This document shows, one piece after another, positions 52,533-55,369 of a stretch of 64,000 nt of DNA. Origin of the DNA: Escherichia coli (GTDB lineage: Bacteria > Pseudomonadota > Gammaproteobacteria > Enterobacterales > Enterobacteriaceae); NCBI RefSeq assembly GCF_009931435.1, contig NZ_CP043414.1. One strand, given 5' to 3'. The notes beneath the pieces were generated by a model, which worked only from the letters and a program-made list of their open reading frames with translations, had not been told where the DNA came from and ran no database searches. A program made the translations under genes and the position numbers. Positions within the stretch are counted from its first letter, which is position 1. Every line of letters begins with the position of its first letter.

Positions 52533-53510
52533 TTATTTACTGTTGTATAACAAAGTTATAACCCCATCCACTACCTGAGCCATTTTCTGATAATTCAATC
52601 TGTCTGCGGTATCACCGGGCAAGTGGTATTGTTTATTACGATAAAAAGCGGTGTCGGTAATCATTACGGCGGGAATATCGTGTTGCCAATAATTAAGGTG
52701 ATCAGAGAAATCAATACCGGGAATAAACCCTGGGGCATTCATAGAATAAACAGATAAATCCTGAGATGACAACAATGCCGCTTTTAGCTGACGAACGGCG
52801 TTGATATCCTGCATTCTGCCGACCACGGCAATAAAGTCTCCCCGATCGGGATAAAGCCAGGACATTGCCGGGTAAGGGTAATCCTGACTACCAGGCGCAG
52901 AGTCGTAATAGCCAATCATCTCCAGCGCTATCATTAATCTAACTGGACGCTCAAGCGAAGCTGCATGTACCGCGCTCCCCATTTCATCGCTACGAAAGAA
53001 GGGCGGTTCTTCCGACGCATAGGCGACCAGCTGCACGCCAGTTTTCGGTGCTTGCTGCTGTAACAAACGTGCCAGTTCGAGTAATCCTGCCACGCCGCTG
53101 GCGTTATCATCCGCGCCCGGCGTATAGGTCAATTGATCGTTTTCATAACTGCTGACAGAATCATAGTGCGCACCAATAATAATCAGCGGTCCATCGGCAG
53201 GACCATAATCAGCAACAATGTTTTTGTAGGGACCTCCCGTAATGGGGACGTCCTGCGCGGTAACGCTGGCACCGCTACTGATAAAGACCTCTTTTATATA
53301 TTCTGCGGACCTTTTCAGATTATCAATATTGTCGGCACTACGGGGATGCACAGTTTGTGTAAGATAACGAACTGTTTTTTCTAATTGCTCAGGACTTGTG
53401 TGTCGGGGCGTTGGCGGTAATGCATTGACCCAGGGTTGGTAAAAAATAATCAGAGGGAGTGAAAACAGAATTAATATAATAAAAGCAAAGTTTATTTTTT
53501 TCATATGCAA
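52533..53510 (-). CDS. yfbL: Secreted M28-family (aminopeptidase-like) zinc peptidase
   Basis: 325-aa ORF with N-terminal signal/anchor (MHMKKINFAFIILILFSLPLIIF); M28 motifs IIGAHYDS and ASEEPPFF. Confidence 0.8.
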   Translation of the reverse strand: MHMKKINFAFIILILFSLPLIIFYQPWVNALPPTPRHTSPEQLEKTVRYLTQTVHPRSADNIDNLKRSAEYIKEVFISSGASVTAQDVPITGGPYKNIVADYGPADGPLIIIGAHYDSVSSYENDQLTYTPGADDNASGVAGLLELARLLQQQAPKTGVQLVAYASEEPPFFRSDEMGSAVHAASLERPVRLMIALEMIGYYDSAPGSQDYPYPAMSWLYPDRGDFIAVVGRMQDINAVRQLKAALLSSQDLSVYSMNAPGFIPGIDFSDHLNYWQHDIPAVMITDTAFYRNKQYHLPGDTADRLNYQKMAQVVDGVITLLYNSK

Positions 53511-53641
53511 ATTATTAATGGGTTGCGTTATTGAATCATTATTTGTTATAGGTTTCGATATTGTATTTTATTAAGATTAGCAGGATTATACAAAGAGTAT
53601 ATTTTATGTCTGGTGCCTGAGTTTATTTAAAAGGATTTTAT

Positions 53642-55369
53642 ATGCGAAATAAAAATATAATCATGTTGCTTATGAGTAGTTTGATTTTGTCAGGATGTGG
53701 GCCGGAACCTGAGAATAAGGAAAGTCAGCAACAACAACCCAGTACTCCAACAGAGCAGCAAGTGCTTGCCGCGCAGCAAGCTGCAATAAAAGAGGCTGAG
53801 CAAAGCGCCGCCGCCGCGAAAGTCTTGGCCCAGCAAGAAGTGCAACAATATTCAGACAAACAGGCTTTACAGGGGCGATTGCAGGAAGCGCCAACATTTG
53901 CAAGAGCGGCTAAAGCAAAAGCTACACATGTCGCAAATCCAGGAACCGCTCGCTATCAGCAGTTCGATGATAATCCGGTTAAGCAGGTAGCGCAAAATCC
54001 GTTGGCGACGTTTAGTCTTGACGTTGACACTGGCAGTTATGCGAATGTACGGCGTTTCCTCAATCAAGGGCTGTTACCTCCGCCAGACGCTGTGCGGGTG
54101 GAGGAGATAGTCAATTATTTCCCGTCTGATTGGGATATCAAAGACAAACAATCTATTCCGGCCTCTAAGCCAATACCTTTCGCTATGCGCTACGAATTGG
54201 CACCTGCGCCATGGAATGAACAGCGAACATTGCTGAAAGTTGATATCCTGGCGAAAGATCGCAAAAGTGAAGAGTTACCAGCTTCTAATCTGGTCTTTCT
54301 TATCGACACTTCTGGTTCAATGATTTCTGATGAACGTTTGCCACTTATCCAGTCTTCGTTGAAATTATTGGTCAAAGAACTTCGTGAGCAGGATAACATT
54401 GCTATCGTGACCTACGCTGGCGACTCCCGTATTGCATTGCCTTCTATCTCCGGGAGTCATAAGGCGGAAATTAATGCCGCAATTGATTCGCTGGATGCCG
54501 AAGGCAGTACCAATGGCGGTGCCGGGCTGGAACTGGCTTATCAGCAGGCGGCGAAGGGGTTTATTAAGGGCGGTATCAATCGCATTTTATTGGCCACTGA
54601 CGGTGACTTTAACGTTGGTATTGACGATCCAAAATCGATTGAATCAATGGTCAAAAAACAGCGGGAGTCCGGTGTTACTCTGTCGACGTTTGGCGTGGGG
54701 GATGACAATTACAACGAGGCAATGATGGTGCGAATTGCCGATGTTGGCAACGGTAACTACAGCTACATTGATACCCTCTCTGAAGCGCAGAAAGTATTGA
54801 ACAGTGAAATGCGGCAGACGTTGATTACCGTAGCAAAAGATGTCAAAGCGCAAATTGAGTTTAACCCCGCGTGGGTAACGGAATACCGTCAGATTGGTTA
54901 TGAAAAGCGCCAACTTCGGGCGGAAGATTTTAATAACGACAACGTTGATGCGGGGGATATTGGCGCAGGCAAACATATAACGTTGTTATTTGAATTAACG
55001 CTGAACGGGCAAAAAGCATCAATTGATAAGTTACGCTATGCCCCGGATAACAAATCAGCGAAATCGGACAAAACGAAAGAACTGGCCTGGTTAAAAATTC
55101 GCTGGAAATACCCGCAGGGAAAAGAAAGTCAGTTAGTTGAATTCCCGCTGGGGCCAATAATAAACGCGCCCTCTGAAGATATGCGTTTTCGCGCAGCAGT
55201 AGCTGCATATGGGCAAAAGTTACGCGGTTCTGAATACCTGGACGAAATCTCATGGCAGCAGATAAAACAGTGGGCTCAGCAGGCAAAAGGGGAAGATCCA
55301 CAGGGTTACAGGGCGGAATTTATTCGCCTGGTTGAACTGGCGGATGGGGTGACTGGCATCAGTCCGTGA
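53642..55369 (+). CDS. yfbK: Lipoprotein with von Willebrand factor A (vWA) domain
   Basis: 575-aa ORF; lipobox LILSGC; Q/A-rich low-complexity segment; MIDAS motif LVFLIDTSGSM. Confidence 0.8.
   Translation: MRNKNIIMLLMSSLILSGCGPEPENKESQQQQPSTPTEQQVLAAQQAAIKEAEQSAAAAKVLAQQEVQQYSDKQALQGRLQEAPTFARAAKAKATHVANPGTARYQQFDDNPVKQVAQNPLATFSLDVDTGSYANVRRFLNQGLLPPPDAVRVEEIVNYFPSDWDIKDKQSIPASKPIPFAMRYELAPAPWNEQRTLLKVDILAKDRKSEELPASNLVFLIDTSGSMISDERLPLIQSSLKLLVKELREQDNIAIVTYAGDSRIALPSISGSHKAEINAAIDSLDAEGSTNGGAGLELAYQQAAKGFIKGGINRILLATDGDFNVGIDDPKSIESMVKKQRESGVTLSTFGVGDDNYNEAMMVRIADVGNGNYSYIDTLSEAQKVLNSEMRQTLITVAKDVKAQIEFNPAWVTEYRQIGYEKRQLRAEDFNNDNVDAGDIGAGKHITLLFELTLNGQKASIDKLRYAPDNKSAKSDKTKELAWLKIRWKYPQGKESQLVEFPLGPIINAPSEDMRFRAAVAAYGQKLRGSEYLDEISWQQIKQWAQQAKGEDPQGYRAEFIRLVELADGVTGISP

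Follow-up and report, generated by a model that had tools for sequence, protein, structure and literature searches.

The genes yfbL and yfbK are best regarded as two separate, individually dispensable envelope genes that became neighbours by descent and do not form a dedicated two-gene system, a reading to which we give a probability of roughly three in four. They were analysed in a window of 64,000 nucleotides of Escherichia coli DNA (the whole stretch under study), where both are intact, are divergently oriented and fill positions 52533-55369. The first-pass annotation had suggested that their products, a metal-dependent adhesion module and a peptidase, act as a functional unit of the cell envelope. 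This idea was not supported: it had named a lack of co-occurrence across genomes as a refuting result, and this was observed, as the adjacency is only syntenic in the Enterobacteriaceae and each gene persists alone. Since the two are neighbours only in close relatives and are retained and lost independently, there is no good evidence for a working pair; their back-to-back arrangement reflects common descent within the Enterobacteriaceae. As things stand the pair matters little, as the genes are known and the proposed pairing fails in comparative genomics.

The identities of the genes, their domain features and the divergent layout had been read correctly from the letters alone, as the open reading frames, Pfam and the RefSeq annotation showed. 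In RefSeq, the same region of E. coli genomes is named 'yfbL: M28 family metallopeptidase' and 'yfbK: vWA domain-containing protein', with identities of up to 99.1% for yfbL (aligned to positions 1-972) and up to 98.8% for yfbK. Both genes are already annotated in every E. coli reference. In E. coli K-12 the same genes are b2271 (yfbL) and b2270 (yfbK), with identical order, orientation and RefSeq names; the window yfbK has 97.8% DNA identity to a K-12 strain and the window yfbL 96.3% identity to BW25113. NCBIfam holds an equivalog-level name for neither protein, YfbL being under the cut-off of every equivalog model, and an Rfam scan of 51800-56900 at E ≤ 0.1 gave zero matches. The start of yfbL was placed at TTG 53510 by the ORF tool and at ATG 53504 (MKK...) in the 972-nt gene of RefSeq. 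We followed the latter in the table; the short AT-rich spacer recognised earlier was retained, and its coordinates of 53511-53641, which rest on the TTG start, became 53505-53641. In the window yfbK is flanked by yfbL and elaD. K-12 also has yfbN/O/P between yfbM and nuoN, whereas these genes are missing from the window.

Table 1. Features of the yfbL-yfbK locus, with positions in the window
Feature	Position	Strand	Basis and remarks
yfbL CDS	52533..53504	-	323 aa from ATG 53504, stop included; ORF list, RefSeq match, Pfam Peptidase_M28
YfbL M28 catalytic domain, residues 95-317	52554..53222	-	Pfam span, translation
YfbL N-terminal segment MKKINFAFIILILFSLPLIIFYQPWVNAL	53418..53504	-	translation; hydrophobic over residues 1-29 (Kyte-Doolittle)
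Divergent intergenic spacer	53505..53641	.	137 bp, 25.5% GC; composition
Candidate promoter-like site toward yfbL, CAGACA-16-TATAAT	53585..53612	-	consensus scan, 10/12 matches
yfbK CDS	53642..55369	+	575 aa, stop included; ORF list, RefSeq match, Pfam domains
YfbK predicted lipoprotein signal peptide	53642..53698	+	ends in LSGC (53687-53698), residue +2 Gly; translation
YfbK Ala/Gln-rich tether, residues 20-100	53699..53941	+	composition; partly helical, low model confidence, length-polymorphic
YfbK vWF_A N-terminal domain (PF12450), residues 102-199	53945..54238	+	Pfam 7.2e-33
YfbK VWA domain, residues 216-383	54287..54790	+	Pfam 4.6e-22; complete MIDAS
YfbK_C domain (PF12034, formerly DUF3520), residues 393-568	54818..55345	+	Pfam 1.7e-67

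The N-terminus of YfbK, MRNKNIIMLLMSSLILSGC, has the features of a bacterial lipoprotein: a positively charged n-region (MRNK), a hydrophobic h-region (IIMLLMSSLI) and the lipobox L16-S17-G18-C19, which follows the pattern [LVI][ASTVI][GAS]C. All enterobacterial orthologues retain L-S-G-C, followed at +2 by Gly or Ser, and in an alignment of 26 diverse homologues a lipobox was present in many distant proteins too. With a lipid anchor at Cys19 and Gly at +2, YfbK would be lipidated and, following the Gly+2 sorting rule, would reach the outer membrane. The following region consists of 42% Ala and Gln (18 Ala and 16 Gln in 81 residues). In the AF2 model it forms a helix at 38-71, and the pLDDT is below 50 at 8-31 and 68-99. 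It carries a 6-aa indel relative to the commonest E. coli allele and shows no conservation in other genera; a search of the region for tandem repeats found none.

The globular part contains PF12450, VWA and PF12034 in the order of the YfbK family (COG2304), all three above the cut-offs. The PF12450 region has a block that is strongly conserved among the 26 homologues (TFSxDVDTxSYxNxRR...RxEExxNYF). In the VWA domain, for which the pLDDT was mostly above 90, DTSGSM at 54305-54322 (D222-T-S224-G-S226) together with T290 and D320 follows the DxSxS, Thr, Asp rule of a MIDAS, and D222, S224, S226, T290 and D320 are invariant in the same alignment. The YfbK_C domain was modelled as a beta-sandwich followed by helices. 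The lipobox, the Q/A-rich linker and the vWA domain with its intact MIDAS, all pointed out at first reading, were thus confirmed by translation, composition, Pfam and the invariant columns. Anchored by Cys19 in the outer membrane, YfbK would suspend its globular part in the periplasm by a flexible Ala/Gln tether of ~80 residues. The core, predicted to consist of an N-terminal beta domain, the VWA domain with the complete MIDAS and a C-terminal beta-sandwich/helical domain, most likely uses a bound metal ion to attach to a protein or peptide ligand at an acidic residue.

YfbL matched Pfam Peptidase_M28 over profile positions 1-191 of 193 (E=1.8e-26), and its score of 93.5 bits exceeds the gathering cut-off of 21.3 and places it in the M28 family. 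The predicted metal and catalytic residues H113, D132, E165, E166, E195 and H269 show little or no variation among 22 subfamily members and align with the ligand motifs of aminopeptidase 2EK8 and the Vibrio enzyme, co-catalytic ligands included. The fourth metal ligand is Glu (E195) instead of the usual Asp, without exception across the YfbL subfamily. With its full set of catalytic residues, YfbL would be a two-zinc exopeptidase-type enzyme; a biochemical report of its peptidase activity was not found in the searched literature. Bacterial glutaminyl cyclases appeared among the weaker PDB matches, and this reading was rejected because YfbL, like true aminopeptidases, has both halves of the metal site and an undamaged Glu-Glu pair.

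The hydrophobic N-terminal segment of YfbL is read as a probable signal anchor or possibly as a cleavable signal peptide (cut between VNA and L). Q23 and P24, directly after the segment, are invariant within the subfamily, the A-x-A-like cleavage site is not conserved there, and Pro occupies -1 in many homologues. The segment would either keep YfbL on the periplasmic side of the inner membrane or release it there. The hydrophobic segment, the Pfam match and the conserved residues agree with the N-terminal signal or anchor and the zinc-peptidase motifs that had been assigned to YfbL. Localisation to different compartments, the second refuting result that had been named, is not what the predictions give: both products would face the periplasm, YfbL as an inner-membrane-anchored or released protein and YfbK tethered to the outer membrane.

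Conservation of the gene neighbourhood was followed in the 80 best YfbK loci out of 100,044 species genomes; in 55 of these loci each flank was 3 kb or longer. Among these 80 loci, a YfbL or other M28 gene within 10 kb of YfbK was found by tblastn only in E. albertii and Superficieibacter, and a profile HMM agreed; none of the 78 non-enterobacterial loci had such a neighbour by either method. From the side of YfbL, none of 6 non-enterobacterial loci (52-59% identity) had a YfbK homologue beside it. Close YfbL relatives are spread over the Proteobacteria in unrelated gene contexts. The YfbL homologue of Pseudocitrobacter, P0143, has no contig on record and stands outside the locus comparison. 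The proposed pairing was not found beyond the family in either set of loci, and adjacency did not exceed simple synteny, every positive locus being syntenic.

Within the Enterobacteriaceae, to which the adjacency is limited, the pair always occupies the nuoN-rbn position. It is kept in divergent orientation in Escherichia, Superficieibacter and two other enterobacterial lineages, and further enterobacterial YfbL loci had a YfbK neighbour in 3 of 3 cases, always between nuo and the rbn-elaA-elaB-men genes. The nuoN-rbn interval is variable: depending on the lineage it may hold elaD, which is effector-like, a gene pair of the Septu defence type or a gene resembling cheV. A defence-system reading of yfbL and yfbK themselves was rejected since the PADLOC models gave no match on YfbL, YfbK or YfbM.

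Retention of the two genes is not joint. Salmonella enterica has an intact yfbK and no trace of yfbL. In most sampled contigs of E. albertii, yfbL is a pseudogene beside an intact yfbK, with two kinds of lesion: one strain has a nonsense codon, and contigs of the commonest type have a frameshift. In 5426 complete E. coli genomes, yfbK was found in 2513 and full-length yfbL in 3292; ~775 genomes (~14%) have yfbL without yfbK, as in strain Survcare321, where yfbK is deleted beside an intact yfbL, and ~38% have lost both. The E. coli losses are nested: virtually all genomes with yfbK retain the yfbL segment (2524 vs 2513 genomes), and a 326-bp deletion in yfbL was found only on the haplotype with yfbK deleted. 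This fits a decay of yfbL after the loss of yfbK, and two clonal deletion events fit it equally well. In E. coli, which of the two genes a genome carries could be used as a lineage marker.

What is conserved next to genes of the YfbK family is not YfbL but an ECF sigma factor. In a search of cluster representatives, 7208 matched YfbK over residues ~100-570 at E ≤ 1e-30. In ~38 of the 80 best loci an ECF sigma factor gene is directly adjacent on the same strand, often followed by a gene for a single-pass membrane protein of ~200 aa. These loci span Alpha-, Gamma- and Zetaproteobacteria, Planctomycetota, Verrucomicrobiota and Omnitrophota. This association is known from Casas-Pastor et al. 2021 (PMC7826278), who described ECF289 anti-sigma factors whose extracytoplasmic part is of the von Willebrand and DUF3520 (YfbK_C) type. 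In most bacteria the YfbK core serves as the extracytoplasmic sensor of an ECF sigma/anti-sigma pair, to which it is fused or with which it is co-transcribed; the E. coli copy is an orphan that lacks a sigma partner. Since the usual partner of this very large family is an ECF sigma factor, the E. coli protein may be a periplasmic sensor module left stranded. The sigma link gives a rational start for finding its ligand.

It is conceivable, though we consider it unlikely, that the two genes are co-regulated through shared sites in the spacer, for example by nucleoid-protein silencing or a common activator, and are thereby expressed in one and the same envelope condition, while their products do not interact. 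The spacer is short and at 25.5% GC is far below the whole window (52%), and it contains the promoter-like site toward yfbL. In addition, the enterobacterial loci examined were all free of insertions between the two genes, although an IS1 is annotated under the yfbL-yfbK match of one E. coli strain. In an alignment of six enterobacterial spacers, however, only the ribosome-binding region of yfbK, AAAAGGA(A/T)TTT..ATG, was conserved across the genera, and a search for conserved operators found nothing besides this site. A scan for promoters and terminators gave no enrichment over shuffles (9 promoter-like matches found in the region vs 6.7 expected), so that the CAGACA-16-TATAAT site is only a candidate. 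The sole regulator peak found in the literature, a weak LldR gSELEX peak, lies inside yfbK. On the favoured reading, the spacer carries a separate start region for each gene.

It is still less probable that YfbK, after losing its sigma partner, was re-used together with YfbL as a unit specific to the Enterobacteriaceae. For example, the MIDAS of YfbK could capture a periplasmic or surface protein that YfbL trims, or YfbL could process the YfbK tether. This would suit the periplasm-facing prediction for both proteins, the nested losses in E. coli and the persistence of the pair, which stays adjacent, divergent and uninterrupted down to ~63-70% protein identity while its outer flanks are swapped between lineages (yfbM, yfbNOP, Septu, elaD, cheV-like). 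Surface-related phenotypes were also reported for both knockouts. Deletion of yfbL confers resistance to phage N4, a defect that was complemented, in a 2025 preprint that gives no mechanism, and a yfbK knockout has a low efficiency of plate conjugation. The same preprint, however, has yfbK on neither its N4 nor its T4 hit list, and the phenotypes reported for the two genes thus differ, which favours two separate genes. Those who observed the conjugation phenotype did not pursue it. A fused YfbL-(GGGGS)6-YfbK chain, modelled with AF2 from a paired alignment with 4 distinct lineages, reached a pTM of 0.66, somewhat above the ~0.56 that we roughly estimated for two undocked bodies, but without PAE this is no evidence of an interface. 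Against such a unit stand, above all, the maintenance of yfbK without yfbL in Salmonella, the twofold inactivation of yfbL in E. albertii beside a retained yfbK, the ~775 E. coli genomes with yfbL alone and the absence of the pairing outside the family from the side of either gene. That the orphan sensor YfbK and YfbL form a periplasmic module in Escherichia and its nearest relatives, which remodels a surface structure for N4 adsorption and mating-pair formation, would explain the persistence of the pair amid the turnover of its flanks and the loss of yfbL after yfbK deletion in E. coli, and is the least probable reading of all.

Taken together, yfbL and yfbK are most plausibly two independent genes of common location, and the first-pass description of them as uncharacterised was nearly right: neither has a defined biochemical function, whereas the ECF link of the YfbK family and the N4 phenotype of yfbL are published.

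Each protein was compared with known systems. YfbL belongs to the same fold family as the M28 aminopeptidases 1AMP (Vibrio proteolyticus leucyl aminopeptidase) and 2EK8 (Aneurinibacillus) and shares their ligand motifs HxD, DDxxSG, EE and SDH, although the match is distant and covers part of the chain (E 1e-10 to 1e-12). It differs from both in that a membrane segment stands at its N-terminus, with a conserved QPxV directly behind it, and in that a propeptide and a PA domain are missing. The predicted YfbK core resembles ArnB (8S05, 5A8J), the Catenulispora protein 4FX5 and the heavy chain 1 of inter-alpha-inhibitor (6FPY) with Foldseek E values of 1e-14 to 1e-18; ~400-420 columns were aligned, with an identity of only 12-16% and TM-scores of 0.33-0.5. 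The Sec24 trunk also resembles the whole core in the AF2 model. ArnB, 4FX5 and ITIH1 are metal-dependent protein-binding modules, but their cellular settings, archaeal cytoplasm and animal plasma, are unlike that of YfbK. Much closer are the ECF289-type anti-sigma factors, which have the three-domain core in common with YfbK at ~45-50% identity, MIDAS residues included. Their N-terminal anti-sigma (zf-HC2) and transmembrane part, of which the zf-HC2 domain was found in the YfbK homologue of locus L080, is replaced in E. coli YfbK by the lipoprotein signal peptide, which leaves neither an anti-sigma domain nor a transmembrane helix; an adjacent ECF sigma factor gene is missing as well. The window YfbK resembles the gammaproteobacterial operons of a vWA lipoprotein, an ECF sigma factor and a single-pass protein, minus the last two genes, and is an orphan of this ECF-linked sensor family.

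The genes between 50000 and 58500 of the window follow the E. coli order nuoM, nuoN, yfbM(-), yfbL(-), yfbK(+), elaD(-), rbn(-), elaA(+), elaB(+), and the segment 52400-55500 was matched by megablast in 5363 of 5426 complete E. coli genomes. RefSeq labels the genes under study 'yfbL: M28 family metallopeptidase' and 'yfbK: vWA domain-containing protein'. The window is not from K-12; its yfbK is 97.8% identical to that of a K-12 strain and its yfbL 96.3% identical to that of BW25113. The genes yfbN/O/P, which lie between yfbM and nuoN in K-12, are absent from this position in the window. 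The first-pass annotation described a divergent yfbL/yfbK pair with a short AT-rich spacer and proposed it as a functional unit of the envelope. Every statement it made on the sequence holds, whereas the functional-unit interpretation is not supported.

Features of the yfbL-yfbK region (window coordinates)
Feature	Position	Strand	Remark
yfbM	51860-52532	-	DUF1877
yfbL	start ATG 53504	-	323 aa; TTG start of the ORF tool at 53510 gives two residues more
yfbL-yfbK spacer	53505-53641		137 bp, 25.5% GC vs 52% for the window
promoter-like site towards yfbL	53612-53585	-	10/12 matches; candidate only
yfbK	53642-55369	+	575 aa
lipobox LSGC of YfbK	53687-53698		Gly at +2
DTSGSM motif of YfbK	54305-54322	+	from translation
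elaD	55440-56654	-	34.7% GC vs 52% for the window

Shared regulation of the two genes from the common spacer is possible, although support for it came from none of three analyses. Promoter-like matches in the region were not enriched over shuffles, the spacers of six enterobacterial loci had nothing conserved but the yfbK ribosome-binding site, and Rfam gave no match over 51800-56900 at E<=0.1.

YfbL matched Peptidase_M28 of Pfam with E = 1.8e-26, and its residues H113, D132, E165-E166, E195 and H269 align with the ligand motifs of M28 aminopeptidases of known structure and vary little or not at all within the YfbL subfamily. The annotated N-terminal signal or anchor was found as a hydrophobic N-terminus. 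The hydrophobic stretch is long and is directly followed by a conserved QPxV, and in many homologues Pro occupies -1 of the A-x-A-like site (VNA|L in the E. coli protein). These features favour a signal anchor that stays uncleaved and places the catalytic domain in the periplasm. YfbL is best read as a widespread membrane-tethered M28 peptidase of predicted activity.

The N-terminus of YfbK, MRNKNIIMLLMSSLILSGC, contains the lipobox, and Ala and Gln make up 42% of the residues 20-100. Pfam assigned the domains vWF_A (PF12450), VWA and YfbK_C (PF12034). The complete MIDAS (D222, S224, S226, T290, D320) was invariant across 26 homologues at 41-52% identity. The lipobox, the Ala/Gln-rich linker and the vWA domain with an intact MIDAS were all confirmed. 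An AF2 model from the alignment of YfbK homologues reached a pLDDT of 82.7 and a pTM of 0.78, with a confident core and a low-confidence tether. The tether varies in length within E. coli, with 575 aa for the protein of the window vs 581 aa for the commonest allele, owing to a 6-aa AADAKA-type indel at 53822-53823 (residues ~60-64); other genera have Ser/Gly-rich tethers instead. By the Lol rule of E. coli, a Gly at +2 leads to outer-membrane sorting, and YfbK would accordingly be predicted at the outer membrane.

As a predicted lipoprotein and a protein with a predicted periplasmic catalytic domain, YfbK and YfbL would both face the periplasm, and the shared compartment does not argue against an interaction. 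As a crude stand-in for Multimer, a YfbL-linker-YfbK fusion was modelled by AF2 with a mixed paired/unpaired alignment. Its pTM of 0.66, obtained with only four distinct paired lineages and no PAE, compares with a rough estimate of ~0.56 for two bodies that are not docked.

The pairing was then followed through the gene neighbourhoods. YfbL homologues, gathered by a word-index search, formed two groups. The divergent yfbK adjoins each enterobacterial homologue (63-95% identity), and the pair lies between the same flanks, nuo and rbn-elaA-elaB-menF, as seen at the homologues P0144 (67%), P0146 (70%) and P0151 (63%). The second group is broadly proteobacterial, at about 50-57% identity. Neither precomputed Pfam labels nor tblastn detected a vWA or YfbK gene in the surrounding 8 kb at any of six loci taken from it, a small sample made up of Taklimakanibacter, a Usitatibacteraceae contig and four other contigs. 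On two related non-enterobacterial contigs (L006:5060-7879; L090:2743-5562) a protein of 939 aa, with nothing beyond a faint HEAT_2 match, precedes the YfbL homologue on the same strand, near yajC-secDF; it may be a lineage-specific partner of the YfbL subgroup on these contigs.

The YfbK core family is very large (7208 cluster representatives at E<=1e-30), with matches that typically cover residues ~100-570 at 45-55% identity and with very variable N-termini. We analysed the best 80 of at least 538 loci by score, one genome per species and about ten from Pseudomonas; 55 had 3 kb or more of sequence to either side. Among these 80, E. albertii and Superficieibacter electus were the only ones where tblastn found a YfbL neighbour, and a YfbL-subfamily profile HMM run on every ORF of 60 aa or more returned the same two loci. 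Neither method detected an M28 gene within 10 kb of the YfbK homologue at the 78 non-enterobacterial loci. The pair was thus found only in Enterobacteriaceae, and neighbourhood conservation does not support a functional unit.

Within this family the genes also part. In Salmonella enterica yfbK is intact, with nuoN on one side and a cheV-like gene on the other, and the locus showed no yfbL homology, only a decayed yfbM-like remnant. In E. albertii, yfbK was intact in all loci examined; yfbL has an in-frame stop at the W213 codon in the type strain and a frameshift near codon 212 in the commonest contig type (19 of 20 places), and is intact in one contig. At least two independent yfbL lesions are present there (L008:621-1652; L092:3898-4801; L093:3893-4906). 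At 80% query coverage or more, yfbK was found 2513 times and yfbL 3292 times in the 5426 complete E. coli genomes, and a junction-spanning query found both in 2524. Coverage counts and subtraction give both genes in ~46%, yfbL only in ~14%, neither intact in ~38% and no match in ~1%. Each gene has therefore been kept for long without the other, and the two do not consistently co-occur.

A yfbK deletion of ~1.56 kb (~53772-55331), nearly the whole gene, has identical end points in O157:H7 and in the urinary isolate Survcare321. The latter retains an intact yfbL; O157:H7 has a further 326-bp deletion within yfbL (52917-53242). In the deleted haplotype the leftover spacer and the yfbL 5' end are ~81% identical to the window, vs ~95% for the flanks. 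In one E. coli strain (H35; NZ_CM169477.1, 1482728-1484788) the yfbL-yfbK match is in two pieces, with IS1B annotated under it. No class with yfbK present and yfbL deleted was detected among the complete E. coli genomes. This nesting of yfbL deletions in a yfbK-lost background would suit a functional unit, but just two clonal deletion events would account for it equally well.

Published phenotypes concern the genes singly. In a 2025 preprint, yfbL and yfbO knockouts in K-12 gave N4-specific phage resistance, which was complemented, and yfbK was outside the hit lists. A yfbK knockout had a low plate-conjugation efficiency, set aside by its authors, and yfbK was among the hits of a rifampin-induced persister screen. 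An LldR gSELEX peak falls inside yfbK, its product is catalogued as a predicted lipoprotein, and the gene is listed as commonly gained or lost in typhoid-agent Salmonella genomes. None of the reports above linked yfbK to yfbL.

Between nuoN and yfbL lies a hotspot for accessory genes. It holds yfbM alone in the window, a Septu defence pair in an enterobacterial metagenome contig (L003:8978-10900; PtuA 4.3e-168, PtuB 2.1e-69), a YfbO-family gene in another such contig (L088:9176-9598) and only the decayed remnant in Salmonella (L091:6113-7000). On the other side, elaD (ElaD/SseL deubiquitinase-like, Peptidase_C48) looks horizontally acquired; it is absent from its slot in E. albertii, L003 and L088, and Salmonella and Superficieibacter have a cheV-like CheW+receiver gene there. 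In our best reading, yfbL and yfbK are both known genes of the envelope, each dispensable, which lie side by side through common descent in an interval of the chromosome that is variable.

The neighbours of the YfbK family point elsewhere. When neighbour ORFs of the same best 80 of at least 538 loci, called naively, were clustered by all-against-all BLASTP, the dominant family (43 of 80) was an ECF sigma factor (Pfam Sigma70_r2/r4, Sigma70_ECF), whose gene was the immediate same-strand neighbour in about 38. The sigma gene is downstream in Pseudomonas, Colwellia, Psychromonas, Shewanella and other Gammaproteobacteria. At a subset of these loci, chiefly in Pseudomonas and Competibacter, it is followed by the gene for a ~200-aa protein with one transmembrane helix that looks like an anti-sigma factor. 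The Pseudomonas-type operon (L011-L017, L020, L024, L077) runs from the vWA lipoprotein through the ECF sigma factor to this single-pass protein, which has a conserved N-terminal PPAxLDAxIL motif and no Pfam match and would presumably be an anti-sigma factor outside the existing classes. In Rhizobiales, Devosia, Scalindua, Verrucomicrobia and Omnitrophota the sigma gene is upstream and overlapping, and the YfbK homologues are extended at the N-terminus by a long segment, which in one locus (L080) bears a zf-HC2 anti-sigma motif. The link between the YfbK family and ECF sigma factors has been published for the ECF289 anti-sigma factors (PMC7826278).

Because of this link, E. coli YfbK is best read as an orphan within a family of ECF-linked sensors and not as a peptidase partner. 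Its top Foldseek matches in the PDB showed no tie to proteolysis. They were ArnB/ArnAB, the Catenulispora vWA protein 4FX5, the inter-alpha-inhibitor heavy chain 1 and the Sec24 trunk, all of them VWA-plus-beta-sandwich protein-binding modules.
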